From IMG/VR virus record IMGVR_UViG_3300021326_000002: 35,178 nucleotides of DNA; one strand, given 5' to 3'. Origin of the DNA: a virus. A program made the translations under genes and the position numbers. Below the pieces are notes generated by a model. The model ran no database searches. It was not told the origin of the DNA and was given only the letters and a program-made list of their open reading frames with translations. Positions within the stretch are counted from its first letter, which is position 1; the number at the start of each line of letters is the position of its first letter. This document shows, in pieces, positions 10,524 through 35,178 of this stretch.

Positions 10524-11099
10524 TTATGTGTCGAGAATAGCCGACGCGATCATATCGGCGGTGTGTGTATAAAGCACATTCGGATATAGCTTTATAGCGT
10601 GGTTGTAATAGTTCCAGCGTTCTTTGTCGTCGAATGCGCCCATGTGCCAGCGTATGCAAGCTATTTCCTCATCGGTCAATCTGCCGTGCAGGATATTTTG
10701 AGCAAGTATAACAGACTTTTCGCCGTGACCGTCAAGCAAGGTTTCTTTATTATAAATGTATATCGGCTTGCCGTTCTCGTCGCCAACGTACTTGTATGTA
10801 TCGCACTTGCAAAGATCGTGCAGCATACCGACAATATACGGGCTGCGTTCATTGCCCCATTTAAGCCCGAGCCTTTCGGTGAGGTTTACAAGCTGCTCCG
10901 TGACCGCCTTTGAATGGTCGAACAAGCCGCCGCTGTATGCTCCGTGAAATTTGGTTGACGCGGGAACGGTGAAAAAGCCCATTTTGTCAAGCTGTTCAAT
11001 AGCGCCTTTTTTGTCATACGGCACAAAGTTGAACGCTTTGCACATAAGCGCTTTGAATTCTTCTATGCGTATATCCTTGTTCTTCGTTGTGTCCCGCAT
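10524..11099 (-). CDS. HD-domain phosphohydrolase (191 aa)
   Basis: H...HD signature (FHGAYSGGLFDHS ... MLHDLCK). Confidence 0.7.
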   Translation of the reverse strand: MRDTTKNKDIRIEEFKALMCKAFNFVPYDKKGAIEQLDKMGFFTVPASTKFHGAYSGGLFDHSKAVTEQLVNLTERLGLKWGNERSPYIVGMLHDLCKCDTYKYVGDENGKPIYIYNKETLLDGHGEKSVILAQNILHGRLTDEEIACIRWHMGAFDDKERWNYYNHAIKLYPNVLYTHTADMIASAILDT

Positions 11100-11101
11100 A
11101 G

Positions 11102-11845
11102 TTAGTCCTCCTCGCCGCCTATTGCTTCATCAAGTATTATGCGCCCGTCGCGCGCCTGTCGGCGCGCGATCAAGATTTCATGATTGAATGTACAAGCCGG
11201 GGCGACGCCGATACTGTACGTCGCGTAGCTGTAGTTGAGCGCCCCCGACGGGTTGACGTAGCGGACGTTGCTCGCGTAGCCGACGTCACAACTCCACGGC
11301 GTAAGCGTCCATACATAGTCACTATAACGCGGTACAAGCGCCCTGTACTTGCGGTATTGGTCGCAAGATAGCAGCGTTACAAAGTCCTCGCAAGTGCCGT
11401 ATTTTGTGTCGCCGTTATCTGCCGTAAGGTCGGAACGGGTCTTGACAAGGTGCTTTGTGTTGATCTTCATGTGGTCTATGTATTCGTTATTCAGATAGCG
11501 GCGCAATTCAGATCGCGCCCAATTGTTTGACCCGTCGCCGCCCTTGTCGTTAAACTGCACGTCGTCGGCTATGTCCGCCGTGATCGCGAAATAGTCGCCG
11601 TTGTCGGTGACGTCAAGCAGAACGTACTCATAGTCGTTATAATAGAAATGGTCGCCCGGCTCGAGGTCGTAGTATTCGTCGGCTTCGTCATACTCTGTAT
11701 CGCCGATTTTACCCATTGCCGCAAGTGCAGCGTTATAAATTTCTGTTCCTATGTGGGCGAATTCCTGTAATATGTCGCTTGCTTCGCCCTCAATAACAAC
11801 TTTAACGCCGCCGAGTGCGTTTTCGTCCTTGTATGCTTTTATCAT
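11102..11845 (-). CDS. Second DGR target protein: acidic N-terminal domain plus a C-type-lectin-like variable C-terminal domain (247 aa)
   Basis: Strong RBS AAGGAGG. The C-terminus WTLTPWSCDVGYASNVRYVNPSGALNYSYATYSIGVAPAC is encoded by VR2, which matches the TR. Confidence 0.85.
   Translation of the reverse strand: MIKAYKDENALGGVKVVIEGEASDILQEFAHIGTEIYNAALAAMGKIGDTEYDEADEYYDLEPGDHFYYNDYEYVLLDVTDNGDYFAITADIADDVQFNDKGGDGSNNWARSELRRYLNNEYIDHMKINTKHLVKTRSDLTADNGDTKYGTCEDFVTLLSCDQYRKYRALVPRYSDYVWTLTPWSCDVGYASNVRYVNPSGALNYSYATYSIGVAPACTFNHEILIARRQARDGRIILDEAIGGEED
11148..11169 (-). other. GC hairpin (9-bp stem, 4-nt loop) 22 nt downstream of VR2, inside the coding sequence
   Basis: tcgcgcgcc-tgtc-ggcgcgcga; the sense-strand loop is GACA. 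Confidence 0.7.
11192..11287 (-). repeat. DGR variable repeat 2 (VR2)
   Basis: Aligns to TR 23730-23825. All 10 mismatches are at TR adenines (sense strand); there are none at the 69 non-adenine positions. Confidence 0.85.
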
Positions 11846-11847
11846 TG

Positions 11848-12042
11848 TTATTCCTCCTTGACTTCGGGTTTCTTTCCGTACATTTTTTCGTCAATGTCTT
11901 TGAGTTGATAATATCTCGGTATCGTGTTAAGCCTGCAAGGTACGCGGCTCTCGCTGTCGTAAAACGGACAACTTTTGCACTTTCTGCGATTGCAAAATTT
12001 GTGAAGTATGTGCGCTGCCCTGAGTGCTTTTGTAAAGTTCAT
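11848..12042 (-). CDS. Hypothetical Cys-rich small protein (64 aa)
   Basis: ATG at 12042 preceded by AAGGAG. The longer TTG-started track ORF would overlap the upstream gene. Confidence 0.45.
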   Translation of the reverse strand: MNFTKALRAAHILHKFCNRRKCKSCPFYDSESRVPCRLNTIPRYYQLKDIDEKMYGKKPEVKEE

Positions 12043-12079
12043 TTTCGTTCTCCTTATATTCTTTGCAAGCCTGCTCTTG

Positions 12080-12352
12080 TCAGCGTGGTTGACGAGAATT
12101 TGTAACAAAATAATGATCGCGGTCAAGCGGCTTGTTTTCGTCGTATAGCTCTATGTTTCGCGGTTCGTCCCATACCATGCAGCGCTCGTTATCGTCAACA
12201 AGCCCGACGGAAATAAACTTGCGCCCGTCGCTTTCGGTAACGTGCTTGTATTCCTTGATACGCTTATATACTATCAGACAACCCGAACAACGGCAATTAT
12301 GAACGATACGCACTTGATCTATATACGCTTGCCTTGCTTCGTCAATCGTCAC
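12080..12352 (-). CDS. Hypothetical protein (90 aa, GTG start)
   Basis: ORF in the co-directional early gene array. No recognisable motifs. Confidence 0.45.
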   Translation of the reverse strand: MTIDEARQAYIDQVRIVHNCRCSGCLIVYKRIKEYKHVTESDGRKFISVGLVDDNERCMVWDEPRNIELYDENKPLDRDHYFVTNSRQPR

Positions 12353-12605
12353 GCTCCGCCGCCCCGCTTTCGTATATGGTTTTTAGATAGTTTTCCGTCT
12401 GCCTTGAAAACAACTGTCTATTTCTTTTGGCTTCGTTCTTTGCCTGCTCGTTCCGCCAATCGAAATAAACGATAACAACCTCGACGGCGGTAACAAAGCC
12501 GAGCACAACCCACGCAAGCGGCGTATTAAATGCCGCTGCAAGTATGAAAAAGAATTCCCACACAAAGCAGACGATCGCGCAACCCGCTTCATCAGATATT
12601 TTCAT
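12342..12605 (-). CDS. Small membrane protein with two predicted TM helices (87 aa)
   Basis: Hydrophobic stretches CAIVCFVWEFFFILAAAF and LAWVVLGFVTAVEVVIVYF. Confidence 0.5.
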   Translation of the reverse strand: MKISDEAGCAIVCFVWEFFFILAAAFNTPLAWVVLGFVTAVEVVIVYFDWRNEQAKNEAKRNRQLFSRQTENYLKTIYESGAAERDD

Positions 12606-12617
12606 ATTTACCCCCTA

Positions 12618-13013
12618 TCAGAACGGGCAAGGGATATGCTCGGCAAGTTCTGCCTCCAGCGCGTCAAAAGCCGCCTTTGTATTGCGGTGGTTTTTGTACG
12701 CTTTAAGCAGGCTTTCGCACATCTTATAAAGCCTTGTGTAATCGTCCAGCGTTGCCGCTGCGAACGCTTCGGCGCGTTTTGCGTCCGCCGCCCGTTCCTT
12801 TGCCCTTAACAGTTCGCCGAATTCGTCAGCGGACATATTATGTATAATTATGCGGTGTCCTGTCTGCTCGGGGTTTCTTACCCTTGACAAGCGGTTTCTA
12901 ACGCCGCCCTTTGACCGCCCCATTATTTCAGCGATCGCCGCATAGGTCTTGCCCTCGTCGGCAAGCTGCAAAAGCAGCTTATCCTCGGCGGGCGTCCATT
13001 TTGTTTCAGACAT
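12618..13013 (-). CDS. Myb/SANT-like HTH DNA-binding protein (131 aa)
   Basis: N-terminal WTPAEDKLLLQLADEGKTYAAIAEIMGRSKGGVRNRLSRV. Confidence 0.55.
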   Translation of the reverse strand: MSETKWTPAEDKLLLQLADEGKTYAAIAEIMGRSKGGVRNRLSRVRNPEQTGHRIIIHNMSADEFGELLRAKERAADAKRAEAFAAATLDDYTRLYKMCESLLKAYKNHRNTKAAFDALEAELAEHIPCPF

Positions 13014-13020
13014 AACAAAA

Positions 13021-13155
13021 TCACTCCGTTTCGTCAGTTTTCTTGAAATATTCGATTTCTTCCCATGTGGTTGACGATATACCTTGCGCCCATATCGAGC
13101 CGATAATGATAGCTACAACCACGCCCGCCAATATAGCGGCGATAATACCAAGCAA
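13021..13155 (-). CDS. Small single-pass membrane protein (44 aa, TTG start); below the ORF-track size cutoff
   Basis: GGAGGTG RBS 6 nt upstream of the TTG. Sequence LLGIIAAILAGVVVAIIIGSIW. Fills the gap between two genes exactly. Confidence 0.45.
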   Translation of the reverse strand: MLGIIAAILAGVVVAIIIGSIWAQGISSTTWEEIEYFKKTDETE

Positions 13156-13156
13156 A

Positions 13157-13768
13157 TTAACCACCTCCCCGCATAATGTTTTCTTGATATTCTCTAAGCC
13201 ATTGCAGCGCCTTTGTCGCCTGCTGCTGTTCTCTGTATGATACGCGTTCTTTTTTGCGGCGGTATTTTCTATAATCGACGCTTGATATTGTTGTTATATC
13301 AATATCCCCGCCCATTTCTTGAATACGTTCTAACGGTCGGTCAGTTTCGGCTTGATCTGATAGCAGCACCGCCACAAGCCGCGCCCGCCGTTCCCGTCCG
13401 AGCCCGTGTTCGCGGTGTAGCTGGACGAACAACAAGCGCACGTTGTTGATATACACATCTTTAACGCTGCTGTTGACCGGGTGCATAAACTTTTCAACAA
13501 TGCGTCTACAATCGTCAGTATAAACCCCGATGCTGTCGCAAGCCTGCTGTATTTTGTAGTCGAATACGTCAAGCTGCTCGTATTCGTCCGATATGCTGCA
13601 ATACTCTGTCCTATCGTCAAGAAACGTGCATATTGCTTTCGGGTACATGATTTTCGGAAATAGTTTGTTTGCCGTCAAAAGCACTATGCACATAACGTTG
13701 ACGGTTTCGTTTGCCGCGTCAATGATCGGCTTGTTTTTGTGGTAGTCCTTGAAAACTCTGTTTGTCAT
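13157..13768 (-). CDS. Hypothetical protein (203 aa)
   Basis: ATG with AAGGAGGG RBS. No recognisable motifs. Confidence 0.55.
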   Translation of the reverse strand: MTNRVFKDYHKNKPIIDAANETVNVMCIVLLTANKLFPKIMYPKAICTFLDDRTEYCSISDEYEQLDVFDYKIQQACDSIGVYTDDCRRIVEKFMHPVNSSVKDVYINNVRLLFVQLHREHGLGRERRARLVAVLLSDQAETDRPLERIQEMGGDIDITTISSVDYRKYRRKKERVSYREQQQATKALQWLREYQENIMRGGG

Positions 13769-13901
13769 GTTCGCCCTCCTTGCCTTTTGGCTTGTAATCC
13801 TTGCACGGGTAAAGCCTGCTCCATTCGGGGCATTTATAGCAGCTTTTGCAATCGTAGCACGTTATAACCTTTGGTTTGGTGTAATGTATCTTATTATTCA
13901 T
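13719..13901 (-). CDS. Hypothetical Cys-rich small protein (about 60 aa)
   Basis: CYDCKSCYKCPEW motif. ATG at 13901 overlaps the upstream stop. The 3' end overlaps the next gene by 50 nt. Confidence 0.35.
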   Translation of the reverse strand: MNNKIHYTKPKVITCYDCKSCYKCPEWSRLYPCKDYKPKGKEGEHDKQSFQGLPQKQADH

Positions 13902-14097
13902 AATCAACTTTCAACCACCTTTTATAATTACCGGGGTCGCTTTCGCTGTAATCTATGTCAAGATCAACTATGTCATATTCACAACCAAAAGGCAACAGTA
14001 AAACACGCGTTGGCAATTGTGCGCTAATTTCTGTATGCAGCTTTCGCAAATCTTCCACTTTCATATTTCGATTTGCTTTTATTACAATTACTTTCAC
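13894..14097 (-). CDS. Hypothetical protein (67 aa, GTG start)
   Basis: GGGGGG RBS followed by GTG at 14097. The longer track ORF would overlap the small TM gene upstream. Confidence 0.4.
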   Translation of the reverse strand: MKVIVIKANRNMKVEDLRKLHTEISAQLPTRVLLLPFGCEYDIVDLDIDYSESDPGNYKRWLKVDYE

Positions 14098-14108
14098 TTT
14101 TGCCCCCC

Positions 14109-14255
14109 TTAAAACGTTACCGTCACGTTGAGTACGGCGGCGGCAAGCCAGTATATGCCCCGCCGTGCGTCCTTTTGAATAAAGCACATGATCGCCGCCA
14201 GCACGTCTATAATTATCAGCAAAAGCGGCAATATCTGTTCGGGCTTAATCTTCAT
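14109..14255 (-). CDS. Small two-TM membrane protein (48 aa); below the ORF-track size cutoff
   Basis: GGAGG RBS. Sequence MKIKPEQILPLLLIIIDVLAAIMCFIQKDARRGIYWLAAAVLNVTVTF. Confidence 0.45.
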   Translation of the reverse strand: MKIKPEQILPLLLIIIDVLAAIMCFIQKDARRGIYWLAAAVLNVTVTF

Positions 14256-14433
14256 CACAAGCCTCCACCAGCTTTTCAACCGCTGCGTTAATGTAGTCGA
14301 TTGCGGCTCGGGTCGCCTGCGTTCCGGCAGCGTTGTTGTCGCACGTTACCGTCAATTCGTCGATAATGCTTTCAAGTTCATCAATCGCCGCACGCCTGCG
14401 GGCATAGTCGCACAATTCGTAATTTGCTATCAT
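14245..14433 (-). CDS. Hypothetical protein (62 aa)
   Basis: ATGA start/stop overlap with the upstream gene. Confidence 0.45.
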   Translation of the reverse strand: MIANYELCDYARRRAAIDELESIIDELTVTCDNNAAGTQATRAAIDYINAAVEKLVEACDED

Positions 14434-14870
14434 ACGCCCGCCCCTATGCTGCTGTATATCTTGTCGTCGCCTTTATACGGCAAATCCTTTACGTTCTTGT
14501 AAGGTAGGTTTGCTATACTCATTCGCATACGCACCACAAGCTCCGGCGACGCAAATTTGCTATATGCAGCACCGACGCCCGATACTTCCTCGGTACACCA
14601 CGTTTCGGGTGTAAGGTCTTTTGCTTCATAGTAAACAACAAAGCCGTTTATTTCGTGCCGCCTGCCGCGTCCGATCATCTTATAATACTTTGAATATCCC
14701 TTGCCCTGCGCACAAGCCCTGAAATAAATAGCTTGATATTCGTCGCCGTCCTTGTAGTGTTCATAGCTTTCGCACTCGCCGTCGTCGTTAATAACAAGTG
14801 TGCCGTTGTAGGTGCAGTCCCGGCAATGCTCATTATATTTGCAAGTGTCATTCGTGCAAATCAGTTTCAA
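14430..14870 (-). CDS. Hypothetical protein with a Cys-rich N-terminus (146 aa, TTG start)
   Basis: AAGGGAGTG RBS. N-terminal CTNDTCKYNEHCRDC...C. Confidence 0.5.
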   Translation of the reverse strand: MKLICTNDTCKYNEHCRDCTYNGTLVINDDGECESYEHYKDGDEYQAIYFRACAQGKGYSKYYKMIGRGRRHEINGFVVYYEAKDLTPETWCTEEVSGVGAAYSKFASPELVVRMRMSIANLPYKNVKDLPYKGDDKIYSSIGAGV

Positions 14871-14885
14871 TTAAATCACTCCCTT

Positions 14886-16259
14886 TCATTTGAAACACTC
14901 ATGCGTACCCGACAGCAGTTTCGTTTCATCACTGCTCATCTTGTAGCGGACACGGGTCAGTATAGCGTACCAATTTTCAAGCCGTGTGTTGCGCTGGTAT
15001 CTGCCCTCGTAGTCGTGTAGTGATGTTCTATACATACCCTCGTTGATCGTACTAAGCATAGCAAGCATGACGCTTTCGGGGTGTTTCTTAACACGGTCAC
15101 GATAATCTGCGCCCTTGAGAAAAGCCTCCCAGCTATCGTATTTTTCGCTGTCAATGTCGAGGATTTCGGCGACTTCCTCGTAATCAATATCATCAAGTCC
15201 AGCCTCACCGAGAAATGCTTCCGTGATAGTCGGTATAAATTCACGATTTGCAAAGTCTTTTACAAAAGCCTTGCGCAAGTCTGCTGCCTGCTTTTCGAGT
15301 TCGCTTACCTTGCGGTCACGTTCACGCCGTCGGTCTTCCTGCCGCCGTTTTTCAGCTTCTGCGGCTTTGTCGGCTTCGGTCTGCTTGCTTGCATCGGTGT
15401 ATATGTACACCCACGCATACTCCGGCGCATCGCTGCTTATAGTGTAATACTTTGCGTCACCTGTCTGTATAAGGTCTTCAAGCTCTTCTCTTTTCTTGTC
15501 GTCGGGTTCTTTCGACGCAGTTAAATAGCCTATCTGCCGATAACCGAAACGCTTGTCGTATGGTATGCGCTTCAATCCCATTTCCTCAAGCATTACTACA
15601 TTCTTTTTCAGATTTTCGCCCGCGTTTTCCTGCGAAATGATCTGATTAACTTTCCATTTAAAATTTTGCGTTCCGATAGTTTTTAAGGCTTCATTTTTCT
15701 TTTCGGGGTCTTTTATCTTTTCAAGCTCTATGTAATCAGCAAACGTTGCTTGTCTTTCCTCTGCCTTGCGCAGTTCTTCTTGATCTAATTCAAGCAGTTT
15801 AAGGCGGTGTCTGATCGTAGTTTTGCTAAGTCCCGTTTTCTTCGCTATGCCCTCTTGCGTTTCGCCGAGGTCTAACATCATTTGAAATCCCTGCGCCTGC
15901 TCATATACGGTAAGGTCTGCACGCTGCATATTTTCAAGCAGCATTGTTGCCGCTTGCTCGCGTTCGTCCATTTCAACCACCATACACGGCACCATTTCAA
16001 GCCCTGCCGCTTTCGCCGCCGCAAGTCTGCGGTGTCCTATGATAACGGTGTAGCCGTCTGGGTCGTCCTCGTCCGGGTGCGCTGCTTCAACACCTTTACC
16101 GCCCCACACTACCGTTAAATTCTGAAATATGCCGTTTGCCTTTATGCTCTCGGCAAGTTCCGTGATGTCGCCAACGTCCCGGCGAGGGTTGTTGGGGTGC
16201 GGATAGATCATATTAACGGGTAGCTCGGTATCTCTGTACCTAACTTTCAATGAAATCAC
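14886..16259 (-). CDS. ParB N-terminal-domain (ParB/Srx-like) protein (457 aa)
   Basis: YPHPNNPRR, IIGHRRLAAAKAAG and an HTH-like GIAKKTGLSKTTIRHRL. The true start may be the TTG at 16250. Confidence 0.8.
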   Translation of the reverse strand: MISLKVRYRDTELPVNMIYPHPNNPRRDVGDITELAESIKANGIFQNLTVVWGGKGVEAAHPDEDDPDGYTVIIGHRRLAAAKAAGLEMVPCMVVEMDEREQAATMLLENMQRADLTVYEQAQGFQMMLDLGETQEGIAKKTGLSKTTIRHRLKLLELDQEELRKAEERQATFADYIELEKIKDPEKKNEALKTIGTQNFKWKVNQIISQENAGENLKKNVVMLEEMGLKRIPYDKRFGYRQIGYLTASKEPDDKKREELEDLIQTGDAKYYTISSDAPEYAWVYIYTDASKQTEADKAAEAEKRRQEDRRRERDRKVSELEKQAADLRKAFVKDFANREFIPTITEAFLGEAGLDDIDYEEVAEILDIDSEKYDSWEAFLKGADYRDRVKKHPESVMLAMLSTINEGMYRTSLHDYEGRYQRNTRLENWYAILTRVRYKMSSDETKLLSGTHECFK

Positions 16260-16444
16260 TCCGTTTCTTTGAATTTCTGCTTTTTAAGCCATTTTTTATA
16301 GTCCGCCATAACGGCGGGGTCGTCAAAATATCTTGTCATAGCGTGCAGCGTAGCGCGTGCCGCACCGTTTGCTATGTGCTTCGGTATGTCGGCGGGCTTT
16401 AGCTGCTGCGTACCCGCTTTCGGTTTAAGTATCATTTCAGCCAT
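16256..16444 (-). CDS. Hypothetical protein (62 aa)
   Basis: ATG start. Its stop overlaps the start of the ParB-like gene. Confidence 0.45.
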   Translation of the reverse strand: MAEMILKPKAGTQQLKPADIPKHIANGAARATLHAMTRYFDDPAVMADYKKWLKKQKFKETE

Positions 16445-16459
16445 AAGCCCTCCCCCTTA

Positions 16460-17092
16460 TCATTCAACCCACATTCTCGGCGGCAAATGTGCTATTTCTT
16501 TGTCGAACGCTTCGCCGCTCTTGCCCGTGAGGTCTTTGTACAAAAGGTTAATGCGTTCGTTCTTTTGCGCCAGTAGCGCGCCCCTTTCGTCCAGTTCTTC
16601 AACAATAGACGTTAAGCAATCATGCGCCGCCTTTATGTCATAAAACATAACGATCGTCATTAACACTTTACGGAAATTGCGTATTAACTCTTGCTTTGTC
16701 AGCCGCATAAGCCGTTTTTCGCATTCTTGTACGGCGAGTTCTTCTTCAAAAGACGTAAGTTTGTAATAGTCCAGTTCCGCGGCGTCCCAGCCGTAAACGG
16801 TGAAAAGATCGCCTAAAAGATTGACCGTCATATCGTCCCAAACCTCGGACAAGGTATCGTATTCGCCGTAACAGTCGTATTCGGTAAGCTGTTCATACAT
16901 AGCCCACGCCCCGGCGGATAATTCGTCGAATTGGTCTTTATAGTCGTTGTAGTAGCCCTCGACGCTGGTATCTTCATAGCCGTACATATCGCCGTTCTCA
17001 CCGATCTCGTCGAGCCAGTCCGTTATATTGTCATAGCTCAACGACGCGGCTAAACACGACTTTTTGTAAAGCGGCGTTTTGCTTTTCTTCAT
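16460..17092 (-). CDS. Hypothetical highly acidic protein (210 aa)
   Basis: ATG at 17092 preceded by AAGGGGG. The N-terminal half is rich in D/E/Y. Confidence 0.5.
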   Translation of the reverse strand: MKKSKTPLYKKSCLAASLSYDNITDWLDEIGENGDMYGYEDTSVEGYYNDYKDQFDELSAGAWAMYEQLTEYDCYGEYDTLSEVWDDMTVNLLGDLFTVYGWDAAELDYYKLTSFEEELAVQECEKRLMRLTKQELIRNFRKVLMTIVMFYDIKAAHDCLTSIVEELDERGALLAQKNERINLLYKDLTGKSGEAFDKEIAHLPPRMWVE

Positions 17093-17105
17093 AATTGCCG
17101 CCCCC

Positions 17106-17384
17106 TTAATGACAAATGATGTAGTCGAAAACATCACGCGCCGTTGCGGCTAGGCTATCGCCGTCAACGCGGATTGACACCTCATGCCCGTTGTTGTACT
17201 GGATTGAAACATATTCCCTACCGTCACATATCCAGTATTCAAGGCTGTGTATGTTTGTGTCAGCCTTTTTGACGGCTGCCGATAATTCCCCTTTGACAAA
17301 TAGGGCTTTGCTTGACTGCGATTTAGTCATACTCAAATCGGCGTTAATTGCCTCGGCTGCGTTAGTTTTAACATAAAAGTTCAT
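17106..17384 (-). CDS. Hypothetical protein (92 aa)
   Basis: ATG with an extended SD (GAAACGGAGTGATTT). Confidence 0.5.
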   Translation of the reverse strand: MNFYVKTNAAEAINADLSMTKSQSSKALFVKGELSAAVKKADTNIHSLEYWICDGREYVSIQYNNGHEVSIRVDGDSLAATARDVFDYIICH

Positions 17385-17427
17385 GAAATCACTCCGTTTC
17401 TATATAAAGCCTGCTGGTTATGCACTT

Positions 17428-17450
17428 TAACTTACGTAATGTGTAAGTTA
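17428..17450. promoter_or_regulatory. Operator-like inverted repeat, distal copy: TAACTTACG-N5-TGTAAGTTA
   Basis: Same 9-N5-9 architecture and half-site as the copy at 17693-17715. Overlaps the 3' end of the cro-like gene. Confidence 0.4.
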
Positions 17451-17671
17451 CGTGCAAAAAAAATATTACCTGCATTCTGTGGGGGAATGTCAAGAGCCGC
17501 TACAAGTTTATACATAGCGTCCGAGGACGGCTGCGCCGTGCCTTTTAGTATCTTCCCGAGTGTAGTTCTGTCAATCCCGCTTGCTTTTGCAAGGTCAACC
17601 GTCTTAACAAAGCCCTTTTCAATCATCATTTTTCTAAGAGCGACGGTATCAGTTATAAATAAACTGCTCAT
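17432..17671 (-). CDS. Cro-like XRE-family HTH regulator (79 aa)
   Basis: HTH VDLAKASGIDRTTLGKILKG. First gene of the leftward operon, divergent from the repressor gene. Confidence 0.75.
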   Translation of the reverse strand: MSSLFITDTVALRKMMIEKGFVKTVDLAKASGIDRTTLGKILKGTAQPSSDAMYKLVAALDIPPQNAGNIFFARNLHIT

Positions 17672-17692
17672 GCTTTCAACCTCCTTAATTTC

Positions 17693-17715
17693 AAACTTAC
17701 GTACCCCGTAAGTTT
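17693..17715. promoter_or_regulatory. Operator: perfect inverted repeat AAACTTACG-N5-CGTAAGTTT
   Basis: Abuts the -10 element and covers the predicted transcription start of the leftward (lytic) promoter. Confidence 0.55.
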
Positions 17716-17744
17716 ATAATAACATACTTTAATTCAGTTGTCAA
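17716..17744 (-). promoter_or_regulatory. Leftward early/lytic promoter: TTGACA, 17-nt spacer, TGT-TATTAT
   Basis: Consensus -35 (17739-17744), 17-nt spacer, extended -10 (17716-21 plus TGn). Confidence 0.6.
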
Positions 17745-17785
17745 GCCCTTTTTTCAAGTTTTTTTATATTTTTGCTGAAAATGTC

Positions 17786-17814
17786 TTGCATTTTGCGTTA
17801 GTTTGTGTTATTAT
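17786..17814 (+). promoter_or_regulatory. Rightward repressor promoter: TTGCAT, 17-nt spacer, TGT-TATTAT
   Basis: -35 at 17786-17791 and extended -10 at 17806-17814, 33 nt upstream of the repressor ATG. Confidence 0.55.
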
Positions 17815-17846
17815 AAGATTATAACATAGTTAAAGGCGGTGTTGAT

Positions 17847-18221
17847 ATGGCAATATTGCAGGATAGAATAAAAGAACGGCGAAACGCTCTCGGGCTAACT
17901 TTGTTAGAAATTGCCGAGCAATTAAATGTAACCGAGGCTACAATGCAGCGTTATGAAAACGGACAAATAAAGAATATAAAGCACGAAACAATATACGCAC
18001 TTTCGCAAATACTAAAGTGTAGCCCATCTTATTTAATGGGGTGGTCTAATAGCATATCGGAAAAGCCTGCTGTTGATAATGGCAAATTATCAGACCGTCA
18101 AAAACGCATTGTCGAATTGTTCAACGATCTAACCGACGAACAACAAGATAACCTGATAGGGCGCGCCGAAATGCTTGTTGAATTGAACGAACAAGAATAC
18201 AAACGGCAAGAGAACGCATAA
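17847..18221 (+). CDS. CI-like XRE-family repressor (124 aa)
   Basis: HTH LTLLEIAEQLNVTEATMQRYENGQ. Divergent from the cro-like gene and heads the int-containing plus-strand block. Confidence 0.8.
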   Translation: MAILQDRIKERRNALGLTLLEIAEQLNVTEATMQRYENGQIKNIKHETIYALSQILKCSPSYLMGWSNSISEKPAVDNGKLSDRQKRIVELFNDLTDEQQDNLIGRAEMLVELNEQEYKRQENA

Positions 18222-18257
18222 AGGTACATATTTGTAAGCATTAAAAGGGGTGGTTTT

Positions 18258-19061
18258 ATGGCATTTAAACGCAAAACAGCTATAATTATCGTGCTTTCGC
18301 TTTCTGTTCTTGCTTCTTGTGGCAATAGCTCGGGCGGTTCTTCCACAAATCCGGCTATCAGCACGCAGGAAACATCAACCGTTACAACAACTACACAAGC
18401 GGAAATTACAACCACAACAACCGAAACAACAACTACAACAAAAGAAACAACAACTACCACAACAAAAGCGACGACTAAAGCAACTGAAACGACAACAAGC
18501 GGACATAGGTATTATATACTTAATCACAATACGGGCAAGATACATAACCCGTTATGTCACACTTTGGAGGATAGCAGCGACGAATACGAGGAATTGATTG
18601 ATATTGGTATGGATTGGGTGAACGCTAACGGTTATTCGCTGTGCAAGGTTTGTAACCCTATCGTACCGCCTACGTCAGACAATAACCCGACAACCACAAC
18701 AAAAGAATATGACCGCAACTATTATCCGTTTAGTGAACAAAAAGAGATCAAATTAAAATATGACGCTGTTCTGTATTTTGCACCCGATAAAACGTCCGAC
18801 GACTTGTATAAATTTGGTGCAGGTACAATTTTAATTGCTGTCGGTGAAACAAGCGACTTTTTCGCGGTCACTATGAATAATGAAATAGTATTCTGTGAAA
18901 AGGTTGCTGCCGAATACTATTCCGAGCCTGTCTATACTGACGCTCCGCAAACAGACCCACCGCAAACAGACCCACCGCAAACCGAGCCGCCTCAAACAGA
19001 CGTACCGCAAACAGACCCGCCACAAACAGACCCGCCACAAACGCTTGCGGTAACGGAATAA
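18258..19061 (+). CDS. Lysogeny-module lipoprotein (moron) with a Thr-rich linker, Cys/His motif, SH3b-like segment and C-terminal TDPPQ repeats (267 aa)
   Basis: Signal peptide plus lipobox LSVLAS-C. TTTTQAEITTTTTETTTTTKETTTTTT. H-x3-C...C-x2-C (HNPLCH...LCKVCNP). Seven pentapeptide repeats at the C-terminus. Confidence 0.75.
   Translation: MAFKRKTAIIIVLSLSVLASCGNSSGGSSTNPAISTQETSTVTTTTQAEITTTTTETTTTTKETTTTTTKATTKATETTTSGHRYYILNHNTGKIHNPLCHTLEDSSDEYEELIDIGMDWVNANGYSLCKVCNPIVPPTSDNNPTTTTKEYDRNYYPFSEQKEIKLKYDAVLYFAPDKTSDDLYKFGAGTILIAVGETSDFFAVTMNNEIVFCEKVAAEYYSEPVYTDAPQTDPPQTDPPQTEPPQTDVPQTDPPQTDPPQTLAVTE
18936..19040 (+). repeat. Seven tandem 15-bp repeats encoding T-D/E-x-P-Q
   Basis: The unit acagacccaccgcaa and variants were read directly, in frame with the lipoprotein ORF. 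Confidence 0.85.
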
Positions 19062-19073
19062 AGGGGCGTTATT

Positions 19074-20684
19074 ATGGCAACAAAGAATGACGATAAATTG
19101 ATAACGGGCTACATATACGCCCGCTATTCCCCCGGACCGCAACAAACCGAGGCAAGTATCGAGGGGCAAGTCCGCGAATGCAAGGAATATGCGGACCGTA
19201 ACGGCATACGCATTATAAACGTATATTCAGATAGCAAGCAGACGGGGCGCAATGACAAGCGAGCGGGCTTTCAACAAATGCTCCGTGATTGCAAGCGAGG
19301 CGGCGTGTCCGTCGTGCTGGTATGGAAATTAGACCGTTTCGGGCGCAATCGTGCAGAAATAGCACAAAACCGCGCTTTGCTGAAATTGTCGGGCGTCAAG
19401 GTCGTTTCCGCTATGGAGCATATACCCGAAACGCCCGAGGGCATTATCCTTGAAAGTGTCCTCGAGGGTATGGCTGAATACTATTCCGCTAACCTTGCGG
19501 AAAATGTAAAACGTGGGTTAAAAGAAAACGCCCTGCAATGCAAGGCGAACGGGGCGGGGCAAAGTTTAGGCTATGTTGTCGGTGATGATCGGCGGTACAA
19601 GATAGAGCCGAGCGAGGCGGCTATCGTCAAGCGGATATTTACCGAATACGACGACGGCGCAAAGATCGCGGACATTTGGCGCGGGCTTGTGGCTGCCGGG
19701 GTAAAGACAAAACGCGGCAAAGAGTTTACACAATACGGGATAGCGCGTATTTTAAGCAACCGTGCGTATATAGGCGAATACCGATACGGCGACATTGTAA
19801 CGCCCGGCGGTATGCCCCGCATTATTGACGACGATCTATTTGAACGCGTGCAGGCGCGACGGAATGCGGGCAAATCCGCGCCGACGCGGCGGAGTACAAG
19901 CTGTGACGTTGATTTTCTGCTTACGGGTAAGTGCGTTTGCGGCTGCTGTAAAGGCACAATGCGCGGCACGTCGGGAACGGGCAAAAGCGGGCATAAGTTC
20001 TATTATTACGCTTGCCACAACAAAATATACAAGCACGCTAAATGTACCAAAAAGAACGTTAATAAAGAATGGCTCGAGGGCGAGGTTACGCGCTTGACCG
20101 TCGAATATATCTTGACCGACGAAATAATAGACTTTATCGCCGAAAAGGTCATAGAGGTGCAGGTTGCCGAACAAGCGGACAAATCAATGTTACAATACTA
20201 TGAAAACGAATTAAAGGAAACGCAACGCGCCTTGAATAACATTGTAAAGGCTATCGAGGACGGGCTTGTAACGTCCAGCACAAAAGCCCGCTTGTTTGAG
20301 TTAGAGGAACGCAAAGCCGCGTTAGAAATCAACATTGAAAAAGAGAAAATACAATACCCGCCCCTCGACAAAATGCAAGTTGTGTATTTCTTGCAGCGCT
20401 TCAAGGGCGGCTCGGTTGATGATAAGGAATACCAACGGCAAATAATAGACCTGTTCGTCAATCGCGTGATCGTGTACGACGACAAGATCACTATTACATA
20501 CAACGTCAGCGGCGAACACAACGAATTGACCGCCGATATTATAGAAAAGGCTGCAAATTCGGCGGAGTCGGGGTGTTCGACTAAATACACGTCAAGTCCA
20601 TCATTTGCAGAAAAGTCGAACACTGTTACAATATTCTTTGTCGGTGGACTTTTCGGAATAACCGTAAAAACCCGCAAGGCGTAA
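19074..20684 (+). CDS. int: Large serine recombinase (integrase) (536 aa)
   Basis: Resolvase-type N-terminus YIYARYSPGPQQTEASIEGQ...VLVWKLDRFGRN, a recombinase domain, a Cys-rich zinc ribbon (CVCGCCKG...) and a coiled coil. Confidence 0.9.
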   Translation: MATKNDDKLITGYIYARYSPGPQQTEASIEGQVRECKEYADRNGIRIINVYSDSKQTGRNDKRAGFQQMLRDCKRGGVSVVLVWKLDRFGRNRAEIAQNRALLKLSGVKVVSAMEHIPETPEGIILESVLEGMAEYYSANLAENVKRGLKENALQCKANGAGQSLGYVVGDDRRYKIEPSEAAIVKRIFTEYDDGAKIADIWRGLVAAGVKTKRGKEFTQYGIARILSNRAYIGEYRYGDIVTPGGMPRIIDDDLFERVQARRNAGKSAPTRRSTSCDVDFLLTGKCVCGCCKGTMRGTSGTGKSGHKFYYYACHNKIYKHAKCTKKNVNKEWLEGEVTRLTVEYILTDEIIDFIAEKVIEVQVAEQADKSMLQYYENELKETQRALNNIVKAIEDGLVTSSTKARLFELEERKAALEINIEKEKIQYPPLDKMQVVYFLQRFKGGSVDDKEYQRQIIDLFVNRVIVYDDKITITYNVSGEHNELTADIIEKAANSAESGCSTKYTSSPSFAEKSNTVTIFFVGGLFGITVKTRKA

Positions 20685-20700
20685 GCCCTGCGGGTTTTGT
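20666..20700. terminator. Bidirectional intrinsic terminator between the convergent int and endolysin genes
   Basis: aaaaa-cccgcaaggc-gtaa-gccctgcggg-ttttgttt. The integrase stop codon lies in the loop. Confidence 0.65.
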
Positions 20701-20737
20701 TTGTTGTGCATAAATATTCAGCTCGCGTTTTTGTGCA

Positions 20738-21616
20738 TTATTTCATAAGCATTTCGCCCAGCGCCTTTACAAGCCTGCTGCCTGCAATACCGTTCTGCTT
20801 ATAGCCGAGCCGCTTCAAAAGCTCATTAGTAGCCTTTTCTGTGCCGTCGCCGAATACGTTGTCATTGTTGACCTTTACGGAAACGATCTTTTTTGCGTAT
20901 GCTATCAAAAGCAGCTGCTTGTAAGAAAGTATGCCGAGGCTCTTGTCGCCTTTTTTTGCCCCGCTTGTGTCAAGCACCTTTTCGCCGCTTTCCTGCTTCT
21001 TATATCCGTTGTACCCGCCGCTCTTGATCGTGTTCGGGTAATCGACGTAGCAATAATCGCAATCAACATTGCCACTTATTCCGTTTACCTTGCCGCTGGA
21101 TGTGTACTGCCACATTGCATACGTTCCCGAATAATTCAGCTTGCTTGCATATTCCGCAACCCACAAAGTATAACGCCTTGCAACATCGTTTGAAATGTAG
21201 CTTTGCAGCGGCGAACGGGATATATAAAGCCCAGCGAAATATCCGCACTTTTCCAACTCCCCACAAAAAGCCTTTACTAAGCTGTCGCAAAACGACTTAC
21301 CCCTAACAAACTGTGCTTTTTCCTCGAGGTCAAAAAAGATAGGGTATTCAAACTTTTTGCCGCTAATGATCGTCATGCAGGCTTTAGCCTCGGCGATCGC
21401 GTCGGCGGTGCTGGTAGCGTATGAATACCAATACACGCCGACGTCAAGCCCTGCCGCCTTTGCGTTCTTATAGTTCTGTTCAAAGTACGGGTCTTTCTGC
21501 GACGTGTACTTGCCAAAGCCCGCACGAATGATAGCAAACATGACACCCGCCGCCTTGACCTTTGCAAAATCAATATTACCTTGATACTGTGAAATGTCTA
21601 TGCCCTTTATAGTCAT
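20738..21616 (-). CDS. Endolysin: GH25 muramidase with a C-terminal cell-wall-binding region (292 aa)
   Basis: IKGIDISQYQGNIDFAKVKAAGVMFAIIRAG. ATG at 21616 with GGAGGG RBS, chosen over the longer track ORF. Confidence 0.85.
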   Translation of the reverse strand: MTIKGIDISQYQGNIDFAKVKAAGVMFAIIRAGFGKYTSQKDPYFEQNYKNAKAAGLDVGVYWYSYATSTADAIAEAKACMTIISGKKFEYPIFFDLEEKAQFVRGKSFCDSLVKAFCGELEKCGYFAGLYISRSPLQSYISNDVARRYTLWVAEYASKLNYSGTYAMWQYTSSGKVNGISGNVDCDYCYVDYPNTIKSGGYNGYKKQESGEKVLDTSGAKKGDKSLGILSYKQLLLIAYAKKIVSVKVNNDNVFGDGTEKATNELLKRLGYKQNGIAGSRLVKALGEMLMK

Positions 21617-21617
21617 A

Positions 21618-22079
21618 TTATCCCTCCTTGTCCTTTTCGTCCGTTTCTGCGTTGTTTTCAACTGCAACTTTCAGTTTATGCACTATTGCCGTAAGGAATG
21701 ACGGCAACGGCACGCCGATTATAGCGAGGTTTTCAAGTATTGAAATCAATTCGTTTATAATCAGCCATATTGCGACGATCACGCCGAATAGATAGTTAAT
21801 TTCAACGTCAATGCCTATCTTTTGCAGACCCGACGCTAAAAGCCAGTCCACAACCGCCGCCACGCATACGACAAGCAGATAGCACACTTTTTTGACAATG
21901 CCTTTAATGCCTGTCCTGCTGGATAGATCGGCATTTATCCACGCTTTAATCATTCCCGTTATGTAGTCGATCACCATAACCAATAGCAGAAATACAAGCG
22001 GTATGGCAATTTCGCGGAAATAAGCAGTCAGCCCGCCGACTATCACGGCAAAAACGGCTTTGAATACATTTTCCCTCAA
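21618..22079 (-). CDS. Holin, phage_holin_4_1 (TcdE-like) type (153 aa, TTG start)
   Basis: Multiple TM helices and the motif VIDYITGMIKAW. AGGAGG lies 8 nt upstream of the TTG at 22079; the track ORF extends to 22115. Confidence 0.75.
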   Translation of the reverse strand: MRENVFKAVFAVIVGGLTAYFREIAIPLVFLLLVMVIDYITGMIKAWINADLSSRTGIKGIVKKVCYLLVVCVAAVVDWLLASGLQKIGIDVEINYLFGVIVAIWLIINELISILENLAIIGVPLPSFLTAIVHKLKVAVENNAETDEKDKEG

Positions 22080-22083
22080 ATCG

Positions 22084-22239
22084 TTACGCCTCCTCGCTGC
22101 CGTCGTCGAAATCAAGCCCGGTAATGGTTTTGTATTCGTCGGCGGTTATCCAGCCTTTGCATACCGCGTCATATACCTGTCTTATGCTCCAATAGCCTTT
22201 ATCATAGTAGCCCTTGACCTTTTCAAATTTCTTACTCAT
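22084..22239 (-). CDS. xkdX: XkdX-family small protein (51 aa); below the ORF-track size cutoff
   Basis: My translation is MSKKFEKVKGYYDKGYWSIRQVYDAVCKGWITADEYKTITGLDFDDGSEEA, the typical XkdX pattern and position upstream of the holin. Confidence 0.7.
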   Translation of the reverse strand: MSKKFEKVKGYYDKGYWSIRQVYDAVCKGWITADEYKTITGLDFDDGSEEA

Positions 22240-22534
22240 TGTCGCCGCCCTCCTTGCTGCTGTCGTCTGCCTCTTCGGCTATAATGTCGCCGTTATCCGA
22301 TACCCCCTTGAAAACGTACTCGGTGTCGTTCGCGTAGAAATGATCGCCGGGGGCTATTTCGTCGGTGATCGTGGTGTCGGTGTCGCTGTCGAGTTCAATA
22401 TCGCACATCATGGCAATATAATCGACGTTCGCCGCGTTCTTGTTGGTGGCTTCGGCAAGCGCTGCATTTTTAGCGCGCTCTCTTATCGCCTGTTCGCTTG
22501 CGGGAATAAATCCAAACATTACAATACCTCCCAT
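22232..22534 (-). CDS. Acidic 100-aa protein, a VR-less paralogue of the N-terminal domain of the second DGR target
   Basis: EIAPGDHFYANDTEYVFKGVSDNGDIIAEEAD compared with DLEPGDHFYYNDYEYVLLDVTDNGDYFAITAD in the 11102-11845 product. Confidence 0.6.
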   Translation of the reverse strand: MGGIVMFGFIPASEQAIRERAKNAALAEATNKNAANVDYIAMMCDIELDSDTDTTITDEIAPGDHFYANDTEYVFKGVSDNGDIIAEEADDSSKEGGDNE

Positions 22535-22705
22535 AAATTATAATAATAGTCTGTCATGCTTGCGATCAGCTTGTAGCAATCGCCCTTTGACGCGTGAGCA
22601 ACCCAGCTTTTGAAACATTCGTCAACGTCCTTGCGGCTCATTAACCCCGCCTTGCAGCGGGAAACAAGTTTCTTTAGCTTTCGACGTTCACGCGTTACCT
22701 TTTTT
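22519..22705 (-). CDS. RT C-terminal (thumb-like) segment, readable only in the +1 frame after the A6 run at 22700-22705
   Basis: My translation is KKVTRERRKLKKLVSRCKAGLMSRKDVDECFKSWVAHASKGDCYKLIASMTDYYYNLWEVL, with its stop at 22519-22521. It would restore an RT of about 350 aa. Confidence 0.6.
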
Positions 22706-23572
22706 AGGCAATACGCGCATTACCACTTTACCCGAGGGCGTCAGCCTAAAACTAAAGCCCATAAAATGTAACGGTTGTGTTATCGGGAAAATGTGCGTTT
22801 TCTTCTTACTCAACTGCAAGCCGAGCGCGGCTAAGTGGTTTTTGATTTGTTCACGGCAAGCCCGCAAATATTCTTTGTCGGGGTGTATCAAAATAAAATC
22901 GTCCATATATCGCACATAGCCTTTTATGTGCAAGGCTTCTTTTATATAATGGTCGAGGTCGTCGAGGACGGCTAATTGTATAAGCTGCGTTACTTGTGAG
23001 CCGAGCCCCATACCCTTTGACGGGTCGCTGCCCTGCGTAAAACTGTTTACAATGCGTTCAACCTCGCCTAACGCCCAACTATCTTTGATGCGCTTTTGAA
23101 CGGCTGCACAAGCGACTATGTGCGGCGTGCTGCCGAAATAGTCGGATATATCGCATTTGAGCACATAGCCGTTACAACCGTATTTGCGGTAATGTCTTTG
23201 TAAATGGCATTTCAAGCGGTTTCGTGCAAAGTCTGTGCCTTTGCCGACTTGACAAGCGGCATTGTCGTAAATGAACGACTTTGAAATGTTTTCAGTTAGG
23301 TAATTATCGCATAAAGACCGTTGAAATACGCGATCTTTTATTCTTGTACTCACAATTACCCTCCTTTTCGGCTCGGTGATCGTGAATACCGTGTATTTGC
23401 CTATCTGATATTTGCCGCTTAACAATTCGTCTTTGAGCAAACAACAATTTACCAAGCCGTTTTTAACAAAGCCTGCCGCACTGTCTTTCCACATTATGCC
23501 GCGTTTACATTTGAGCATAGCCGCGTAAAGACTTTCAAACGAGCATACCGTTAATTTTACATTATCATTCAT
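22688..23572 (-). CDS. DGR reverse transcriptase, main ORF (294 aa as sequenced; apparently truncated by a frameshift)
   Basis: Motifs KRRVIVSTRIKDRVFQ, DISDYFGS, GLGSQVTQL (DGR-type (I/L)GxxxSQ-like) and YMDDFILIH. Confidence 0.85.
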   Translation of the reverse strand: MNDNVKLTVCSFESLYAAMLKCKRGIMWKDSAAGFVKNGLVNCCLLKDELLSGKYQIGKYTVFTITEPKRRVIVSTRIKDRVFQRSLCDNYLTENISKSFIYDNAACQVGKGTDFARNRLKCHLQRHYRKYGCNGYVLKCDISDYFGSTPHIVACAAVQKRIKDSWALGEVERIVNSFTQGSDPSKGMGLGSQVTQLIQLAVLDDLDHYIKEALHIKGYVRYMDDFILIHPDKEYLRACREQIKNHLAALGLQLSKKKTHIFPITQPLHFMGFSFRLTPSGKVVMRVLPKKGNA

Positions 23573-23728
23573 AAAAATAATAATTACGCTGTTTATAGTG
23601 ATACTTACTTGTTTTTCAAGTAAACCACATCAACGTTATACTTTCACCTCTGAAATAGGTTAGGACAATAATTCCTTGTGTGAGTGCTCTGATTTCCGCC
23701 TTTTGGCTTACTTTATGCGGGCGTTTCT
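23573..23728 (-). ncRNA. TR-to-RT spacer, presumed part of the DGR template RNA
   Basis: A 156-nt non-coding stretch between the TR 3' end and the RT start. By analogy with characterised DGRs this region takes part in cDNA priming. Confidence 0.4.
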
Positions 23729-23845
23729 CACAATCCGGGGCGACGCCGTTACTGTTCGTCGCGTTGTTGTTGTTGAGCGCCCCCGACGGGTTGACGTTGC
23801 GGACGTTGTTCGCGTTGCCGACGTTCGGGGAACGCAACCACCAAT
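23729..23845 (-). repeat. DGR template repeat (TR), 117 nt, 28 adenines on the sense strand
   Basis: Rich in AAC codons in the VR reading frame (NVGNANNVRNVNPSGALNNNNATNSNG). Identical to VR1 and VR2 at every non-adenine position. Confidence 0.9.
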
Positions 23846-23860
23846 GATAGCGTTTTACAA

Positions 23861-24280
23861 TTATTGCCCTGCTGCTTTGTCGTGCTTCTCGATCTCGGCT
23901 TTACGCCAATTCCTGATTAGGTTTTGCACGTCGTATATAAGCCGCGTCCAATGTTCAACGCGTGCGGTTTCAAGGCTATATGTGCGGTATGCAATATCAA
24001 CCATACTTAACAAAGCGTATGTTTCGGCGAGTGCCTGCGTCTGATAGCGCTTTCTTAATATGTAGTCTGTATCGTCCCGCACAAATACGGAATTAGCCAT
24101 ATTAACGCCGTTGTTGATATTCATTGCACTTTCGACAATCTTACTTGTCAAGCACCAACGGTAACGTTTAGGGAACGTCTTTTCGTTCGCGCAAATCTTC
24201 AACGTATATTCCGCAAGGTCGCGGGCTTTTGTGATAACTACAAGTTTACCCTCGCTTTGCTTTGATTTTACAACCGACAT
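23861..24280 (-). CDS. avd: Accessory variability determinant (Avd), four-helix-bundle protein (139 aa)
   Basis: Size, basic character and the FPKRYRWCLTSKIVESAMNINNGVNMAN motif. Located between the target gene and the TR. Confidence 0.8.
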   Translation of the reverse strand: MSVVKSKQSEGKLVVITKARDLAEYTLKICANEKTFPKRYRWCLTSKIVESAMNINNGVNMANSVFVRDDTDYILRKRYQTQALAETYALLSMVDIAYRTYSLETARVEHWTRLIYDVQNLIRNWRKAEIEKHDKAAGQ

Positions 24281-24292
24281 ATTAGCCTCCGT

Positions 24293-24312
24293 TCCGCCCC
24301 TATCGGGGCGGA
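24293..24312 (-). other. GC hairpin (8-bp stem, 4-nt loop) 18 nt downstream of VR1
   Basis: tccgcccc-tatc-ggggcgga; the sense-strand loop is GATA. Lies between the target stop codon and the avd RBS, with no U-tract after it. Confidence 0.7.
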
Positions 24313-24319
24313 TTTTAGT

Positions 24320-34692: not shown

Positions 34693-35064
34693 TTAGTCTG
34701 CACGTTTCGGCTTTACCTTGTCGTGTAGAGCACGCTTGAAAAAAACCGTCATGCCCTCGTCGTGTATGATCTCGTCGAGAACGGCGAACGTGTCAAGGTC
34801 GTTAGCCTCTTCGACGGTAACGCCCTTGTAGGCTGCTGCAAGCTCGGGCAAGAAATCCGCCACGGTGTCAAGCTGCGGGAGCAGCGCGCTAATTGCCGTT
34901 ACGGCAAGTTCGCCCGCCTTTTCGGTGGTAAGCTGCGCCAGCGCGTCCTCCTTGCTCTTTGCGTCGGTGAATATGTCCGCGTCCTTTAGGGTGTCAATTA
35001 CGGGTGTGAGGTCAAGCCTGCTTGTTATTCTCAAAAGTATCTGCAAAGATTTGATATTCAGCAT
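34693..35064 (-). CDS. Tail assembly chaperone, gpG-like (123 aa)
   Basis: Position between the major tail and tape measure genes. Acidic helical protein. Confidence 0.7.
   Translation of the reverse strand: MLNIKSLQILLRITSRLDLTPVIDTLKDADIFTDAKSKEDALAQLTTEKAGELAVTAISALLPQLDTVADFLPELAAAYKGVTVEEANDLDTFAVLDEIIHDEGMTVFFKRALHDKVKPKRAD
34738..34744 (-). other. Slippery heptamer T_TTT_TTC for programmed -1 frameshifting (G-T fusion of about 237 aa)
   Basis: The sense strand reads acg gtT TTT TTC aag, in the correct phase (X_XXY_YYZ), 15 codons before the gpG stop. Confidence 0.6.
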
Positions 35065-35178
35065 AATAAATAAACTCCTTATCTATTGATTTTTATGATT
35101 TAGGTAGTGCCGCCGCCGCTTGCAGCTTTGCGCATTTCAAAAGACGATACCTCGGTAACTTCCCACAAGTCGCCGTCG
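35052..35178. repeat. Second copy of the 127-bp terminal overlap (35100-35178 duplicates the 3' end of the major tail gene)
   Basis: Identical to bases 1-127. Confidence 0.9.

Follow-up and report, generated by a model that had tools for sequence, protein, structure and literature searches.

How far can a nucleic-acid structure dictate the codons of a gene that contains it? In the diversity-generating retroelement (DGR) of Bordetella phage BPP-1, an RT–Avd complex copies the transcript of a template repeat (TR) into adenine-mutagenized cDNA, which then replaces a variable repeat (VR). The recipient VR is marked by the IMH and by a GC-rich hairpin located a few to about 30 nt downstream, and the TR has no hairpin. 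The stretch of viral DNA analyzed here (the window; IMG/VR record IMGVR_UViG_3300021326_000002, 35,178 nt) contains an inverted repeat of this kind at positions 11148 to 11169, within an open reading frame. A sequence-only reading had taken it for a DGR target-recognition element and proposed that a nucleic-acid structural signal constrains the coding sequence at this site.

A DGR with a remote second target

Bases 1 to 127 of the window recur exactly at 35052 to 35178, and from this 127-nt terminal direct repeat the window can be recognized as a complete phage genome assembled as a circle. The parts of its DGR all lie on the minus strand. The full repeat that the TR shares with VR1 spans 23729 to 23845, and the portion common to VR2 spans 23730 to 23825. 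VR1 (24331–24447) forms the 3′ end of target gene 1 (24320–25732), which encodes a DUF6273 protein, and an Avd-like accessory gene with a weak bAvd match occupies 23861 to 24280. The gene for the DGR reverse transcriptase (RT; RVT_1) lies at 22519 to 23629, and between it and the TR is an RT-2 RNA motif (23564–23725; Rfam, 41.8 bits against a gathering score of 40), the sole Rfam match of the window. The TR, the Avd-like gene, and the adenine-specific differences between TR and VR that are expected of a complete DGR are thus all present. The window copy does not encode an intact DGR-type RT, as the gene is split by a one-base frameshift. Residues 1 to 302 of the RT from a related phage (G001) align in one frame (23608–22700) and residues 301 to 361 in another (22704–22522), and the split, at 22700 to 22708 on the minus strand, comes from a surplus A in the A6 run CCTAAAAAAGG.

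The repeat occurs a third time as VR2 (11192–11287, minus strand, 96 nt), 12.4 kb away, where the sequence for the DUF6273 domain ends in the remote target gene 2 (11102–11845, minus strand), which encodes a 247-residue, C-type-lectin-like protein. Over the 96 nt that VR2 and the TR share, every mismatch falls at a TR adenine, and VR2 is therefore a true DGR variable repeat. Its 3′ end is a GC-rich, IMH-like stretch, where an A-to-C change distinguishes the IMH from its TR copy. The last VR/TR-homologous codon is that of Cys218, and the protein continues beyond it as a translated tail of 29 residues; the figure of 31 given in the sequence-only reading has to be corrected to this extent, the count depending on the VR end that is chosen. 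The next gene (10524–11099, minus strand), which has a weak HD-domain match, starts 2 nt after the stop codon of target gene 2, and its GAGGAGG ribosome-binding site sits in the last codons of the tail. In a search with the predicted fold of target 2 (P0001, model m1d66dc577190), the top match among solved structures was the Thomasclavelia ramosa IgA peptidase (9qa6, E = 5e-6), followed by weak matches to C-type lectin domains. Residues 1 to 45 form an extra N-terminal strand–helix module that is absent from the 180-residue relatives described below.

To follow the locus in nature, we compared contigs, rather than reads, of four public runs (X6, X7, X9, and X13) with the window over positions 10900 to 24500. 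Across these 13,601 bases, a 34,992-nt contig from X7 departs from the window just twice, at 11212 and 11218. Each of the two sites is a TR-adenine position within VR2, where the changes give I212L and Y210D, and the chance that both differences would fall at such sites is approximately (27/13601) squared. The hairpin downstream is identical. The X7 sample may be related to the source sample, in which case the differences represent within-population variation and support the same conclusion. By this comparison VR2 is active in nature, with recent change at TR-adenine sites. Logan contigs also end inside VR2 in X6 and X9 (11204–11279) and inside VR1 in X6, X9, and X13 (about 24350), a pattern that commonly marks hypervariability of both VRs within a sample. 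The A6 run of the RT gene is one base shorter in X9 and X13, which have an intact RT frame, and carries the extra A in X6 and X7. VR2 differs between the window and X7 although both RT copies are frameshifted, so either the frameshift came after the changes in VR2 or some activity persists, by slippage or with a helper RT.

The hairpin downstream of VR2

The two arms of the hairpin on the minus strand, at 11148 to 11156 and 11161 to 11169, are 100% complementary and form a 9-bp stem around a 4-nt loop. The plus strand reads TCGCGCGCC-TGTC-GGCGCGCGA and the coding, minus strand TCGCGCGCC-GACA-GGCGCGCGA; all nine pairs are G/C except the outermost, T-A. The stem begins 22 nt past the Cys218 codon, after a spacer (11170–11191, minus strand) that encodes T219 to L225, and the hairpin occupies the codons for I226-A-R-R-Q-A-R-D233, read in frame as GCG-CGC-CGA-CAG-GCG-CGC. 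The stem-loop, its distance from VR2, and its placement within the ARRQARD codons of the target protein are accordingly as the sequence-only reading had described them.

When folded as DNA, the 61-nt context of the hairpin reaches −16.3 kcal/mol, compared with −9.5 ± 2.1 kcal/mol for shuffled sequences (z = −3.2), and one of 200 shuffles folds equally well. We also scanned the whole window for perfect stems of at least 7 bp with loops of 3 to 8 nt. Only two of these hairpins contain at least seven G/C pairs, the one after VR2 and a second at 24293 to 24312 (minus strand) that follows VR1. The latter has an 8-bp stem (TCCGCCCC/GGGGCGGA) with the loop GATA, and because it begins 19 nt past the Cys codon and 7 nt past the stop codon, it is untranslated. 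No hairpin follows the TR, where the 71 nt downstream fold like shuffled sequences (z = 0.01). A chance inverted repeat in a stretch whose neighboring codons are GC-rich is a reading that the folding score, the absence of any like structure in 35 kb apart from the VR1 twin, and the covariation over 29 distinct sequences presented below effectively refute; we give it negligible probability.

Guo et al. (2011; PMC3240598) described the DGR target hairpin or cruciform as a 7- to 10-bp GC-rich stem with a 4-nt loop of sense consensus GRNA, located 4 to 34 bp after the VR and absent after the TR. MyDGR (PMC6602519) applies the same criteria. The VR2 hairpin, with its 9-bp stem, GACA loop, and 22-nt distance, agrees with every one of the sequence criteria, as does the VR1 hairpin (8 bp, GATA, 19 nt). 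Stem, loop, distance from the VR, and absence after the TR all uphold its earlier assignment to the DGR target-recognition type, and we estimate a probability of about 85% that the inverted repeat at 11148 to 11169 is the cis-acting target-site hairpin/cruciform of the phage DGR. It is a known kind of element, here in a coding position. In BPP-1 the hairpin is required for efficient homing, with stem structure as well as loop sequence and size being important (PMC3240598), and its proposed roles include a recognition or nicking signal (PMC3240598) and a means of keeping the target single-stranded for longer (PMC12875486). By analogy, the VR2 hairpin would raise homing efficiency, for which the recent changes at TR-adenine sites of VR2 offer indirect support, and it probably acts as DNA.

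The position of the hairpin also invites an explanation at the RNA level, as an mRNA stabilizer or attenuator, or as a regulator of the closely coupled HD gene downstream. The hairpin lies 46 nt upstream of the start of that gene, whose ribosome-binding site is in the tail, and a few relatives have T-G (U-G) pairs in the stem, which suit RNA better than DNA. No T-run follows the VR2 stem on either strand, however, and the terminator scan called no terminator-like site at the hairpin, so we rejected an intrinsic (rho-independent) terminator. A known RNA was likewise rejected, as the Rfam scan of the window matched no family there. Further, the genome has just one more hairpin of this type, located after VR1 amid different genes, and in relatives what lies downstream changes from case to case, whereas the spacing from the VR stays constant. 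We consider an RNA-level function very unlikely and retain the target-site hairpin as our reading.

Base pairing and peptide in homologous tails

A sharper question is whether the conserved entity is the DNA hairpin or the peptide that it encodes. A protein search yielded 154 homologs, and in 25 of them (52–92% identity) R228, R229, Q230, and A231 are invariant. In an AlphaFold model based on a 25-sequence alignment (mean pLDDT 78), residues 225 to 229 and 236 to 240 form a β-hairpin with pLDDT values of 86 to 92, and residues past the stem (G234, L238, and E240) are conserved through synonymous changes. The translated tail thus appears to be a real part of the protein with a confidently predicted β-hairpin. 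The proposal that the tail accommodates the DNA structure holds insofar as the hairpin lies within it, but the predicted fold and the conservation of G234, L238, and E240 indicate that the tail is not a mere spacer. These data also favor the alternative that the protein requires an RRQA β-hairpin and that GC-rich Arg and Ala codons yield the DNA hairpin as a by-product, as do the retention of the motif in phages without an RT and one locus (L114) in which RRQAR is kept although the closing pair is lost to a synonymous CAA. By contrast, at the codon usage of the window, a sequence encoding IARRQARD would form all nine pairs with a probability of approximately 0.0017.

To separate pairing from peptide, we turned to the DNA of more distant relatives, obtained through profile scans of IMG/VR and metagenomes; the closest homologs, with 85 to 91% identity and mostly from Logan/ENA, are known by protein only, and a scan of viral contigs with the single protein gave no matches. 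For lineages with PRRQAQ or ARRQAH, the protein sequence predicts a 5-bp stem. The covariation analysis used 29 distinct homologous tails, aligned without gaps. A core 6-bp stem and tetraloop are present in the same register across these 29 tails, in which 73.6% of cells are paired, compared with 26 to 41% when the partners are slid, and the covariation score exceeds that of all 500 of 500 shuffles. Pair 28:39 is C-G in 22 tails, T-A (UA) in seven, and unpaired in none, and the change converts Arg CGC to Cys TGC together with a synonymous change of Ala from GCG to GCA. Pairs 26:41 and 29:38 likewise vary on both sides, making three covarying pairs in total. At the next pair outward, Ala and Arg (GCG..CGC) interchange with Val or Leu and His or Gln (GTG or TTG..CAC or CAG). 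All 29 tails have G as the third base of the Gln codon, the base that closes the loop, whereas the free loop position, the third base of Arg229, may be A, T, C, or G. Some relatives have the loops GTCA, GCCA, or GTTA, of which GTCA and GCCA fall outside the strict GRNA consensus. Pairing is therefore kept through compensatory changes in the 29 tails, and the stem conservation that the sequence-only reading had named as a check is present.

Hairpins at the same place are also found where no RRQA peptide is made from them. We surveyed 155 VR ends for a clean hairpin, defined as a stem of at least 5 bp with a 4-nt loop, of which 49 have it within the ORF, 29 have it past the stop codon, and 77 lack it. 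Sister genes end in LFNPKIFE and a stop codon, followed at the same offset by an untranslated CGCCTC-GATA-GAGGCG, and in one lineage a TGA stop lies within the loop and the stem is a compensated CAC..GTG. At one locus (L113:1969–2040), an upstream 2-nt indel places an intact TGCGCC-GACA-GGCGCA in another frame, with the tail LHCADRRSYIR and loss of the peptide. Two further loci (L109:1945–2010 and L157:1972–2037, tail ..SRQTR..) have a 5-bp stem with a 7-nt loop in place of the tetraloop hairpin, and their stems, AGTCG..CGACT and AGCCG..CGGCT, differ by a compensatory C-G to T-A change. Near-identical loci compared for VR turnover against hairpin state include intact-hairpin pairs with changed and with unchanged VRs, a comparison that recombination confounds.

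The compensatory pairs that change amino acids, together with the untranslated, frameshifted, and stop-in-loop copies, imply that DNA pairing, and not only the protein, constrains these codons. A peptide requirement would not account for pairing that persists while residues change from Arg to Cys or from Ala/Arg to Val/His or Leu/Gln, for hairpins after stops, with a stop in the loop, in another frame, or after VR1, or for a Gln third base that is fixed beside a loop position that accepts any base. We judge the peptide alone to be an unlikely explanation. As read from the aligned sequences, DNA base pairing constrains the codons of the VR2 hairpin, and the proposed constraint of a nucleic-acid structure on coding sequence is sustained both by the compensatory changes and by the untranslated hairpins at the same offset, including those after VR1. 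The best reading is a dual constraint in which both DNA and protein act on the tail. The remote target gene has no stop directly after its VR, so that the hairpin is read as codons; keeping a GC stem and a G..A tetraloop would fix codon positions that are otherwise free and thereby give rise to the family-wide RRQA motif; and because the tail also serves the protein as a predicted β-hairpin, the 22 nt would come under both constraints.

This element is a textbook target hairpin and adds little to the mechanism of DGRs. Its value is as a clean natural case in which a DNA-structure signal overlaps a reading frame and in which base-pairing needs appear to override residue identity (Arg to Cys, Ala/Arg to Val/His). 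RRQA would then be a “conserved protein motif” created by pairing, which might be annotated in error as a functional peptide.

Related phages and known systems

Three related phages (G001, G011, and G013) have an intact RT and a TR, the same two-target layout, and a remote hairpin in RRQA codons, with differing stems; the architecture thus recurs with different stems. G001 (33.4 kb, 100% complete) carries a TR and encodes an RT that is intact at 361 residues and 85% identical to that of the window. In G001 and G011 a VR1 hairpin follows the stop codon, and in G001 it is CGCCGC-GACA-GCGGCG. The remote VR2 of G001 has zero non-A mismatches and is followed in frame by TGTGCGCC-GCCA-GGCGCACA, and the in-frame hairpins of G011 and G013 are TGCGCC-GTCA/GACA-GGCGCA. 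By eye, no comparable GC hairpin is present in the stretches downstream of the TRs of these three phages.

The hairpin also occurs in a family of 180-residue DUF6273 proteins, encoded in nine near-complete phage records (G002–G006 and G017–G020) at loci L013, L020, L007, L009, L014, L021, L050, L027, and L005; three further loci (L177, L179, and L183) are listed with this family. The RRQA codons contain an in-frame TGCGCC-GACA-GGCGCA. None of the nine records has an RVT_1 match, and a DNA search of four of them found no TR copy. The VR of the family nevertheless bears the mark of diversification, with at least three bases in 28 of 95 columns, 27 of them at codon positions 1 and 2, compared with 12 of 230 columns upstream of the VR. 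We tried the TRs of the window, G001, G011, and G013 as templates for this family and rejected them, each having at least 11 non-A mismatches. A fitting TR lies beside an RT in two genomes of the same collection (G021 and G022); it matches the invariant positions exactly and has A at the variable ones. G022 also carries a 180-residue target of its own, and there (L183, G022:C1:22261–22394) a small indel at the 3′ end of the VR shifts the frame before the tail and leaves the downstream hairpin unchanged.

The 180-residue family can be explained either by recent loss of the DGR or by diversification in trans. A tentative extension, which we hold to be possible but the less probable outcome, is that the VR–IMH–hairpin cassette is a portable “address label” that also works across genomes, such that phages without an RT are diversified in trans by the DGR of a co-resident relative. 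If so, trans-targeting would be the selective force that maintains the translated hairpin, and hairpin-defective alleles would be natural loss-of-targeting mutants. All of the defective alleles tested are in genomes without an RT, and stems are intact in six of six RT-bearing genomes; this sample is small and non-independent (about p = 0.05–0.09), and we do not rely on it. In any case, stems and loops vary naturally among the homologs, and these variants, like the carriers without an RT, could serve in tests of the role of the hairpin.

Several observations weigh against the target-site reading of the hairpin. In the Wu et al. (2018) survey (PMC5758913), such repeats are reported for only 34% of DGRs, and about half of the homologous VR ends have no clean hairpin. 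RRQA may be wanted by the protein, given its place in the predicted β-hairpin and the pair-breaking CAA of L114; the GTCA and GCCA loops of relatives deviate from GRNA; many hairpin carriers have no RT or TR of their own; and the RT of the window is frameshifted.

Comparison with known systems places the VR2 hairpin close to that of the BPP-1 DGR (PMC3240598). Both have a GC-rich stem of 8 to 10 bp and a 4-nt loop that, read on the sense strand, begins with G and ends with A, both lie shortly 3′ of the VR and IMH with none after the TR, and in both it is the structure, and not the stem sequence, that is conserved. They differ in that the mtd stop codon of BPP-1 falls within a 4-bp spacer, leaving the hairpin untranslated, whereas the VR2 spacer is 22 nt and the ORF continues for 29 codons past the VR. 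The loop is GAAA in BPP-1 and GACA after VR2, and the VR2 hairpin is characterized here from sequence alone. It fits exactly the search criteria of MyDGR and Wu et al. (PMC6602519 and PMC5758913), and it resembles the repeats of the latter survey, which occur in some DGRs only and are not terminators. The passages of the two papers drawn on here are silent on whether the repeat lies in coding sequence. Relatives of VR2 often have 5- to 6-bp stems and the loops GTCA or GCCA and would escape these criteria; DGR finders that demand stems of 7 to 10 bp, or that ignore coding sequence, would miss many such hairpins.

The gut phages nd4 and nd12 (PMC10743442) resemble the window in having one TR and two C-type-lectin-like targets of the DUF6273 fold family, one of them non-adjacent. 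The genes of the target 2 type in nd4, nd12, FP_Toutatis, and Lelie have longer tails, and the roughly 45 nt next to their VRs contain no canonical GC hairpin; these relatives therefore offer no comparison for the hairpin itself. Finally, group IIC introns, whose targeting of terminator stem-loops is discussed in PMC3240598, are like DGRs in using a GC-rich DNA stem-loop as part of retroelement target recognition. Compared with their targets, the VR2 element has neither a U-tract nor an intron, its loop sequence is conserved, and it lies inside a gene.
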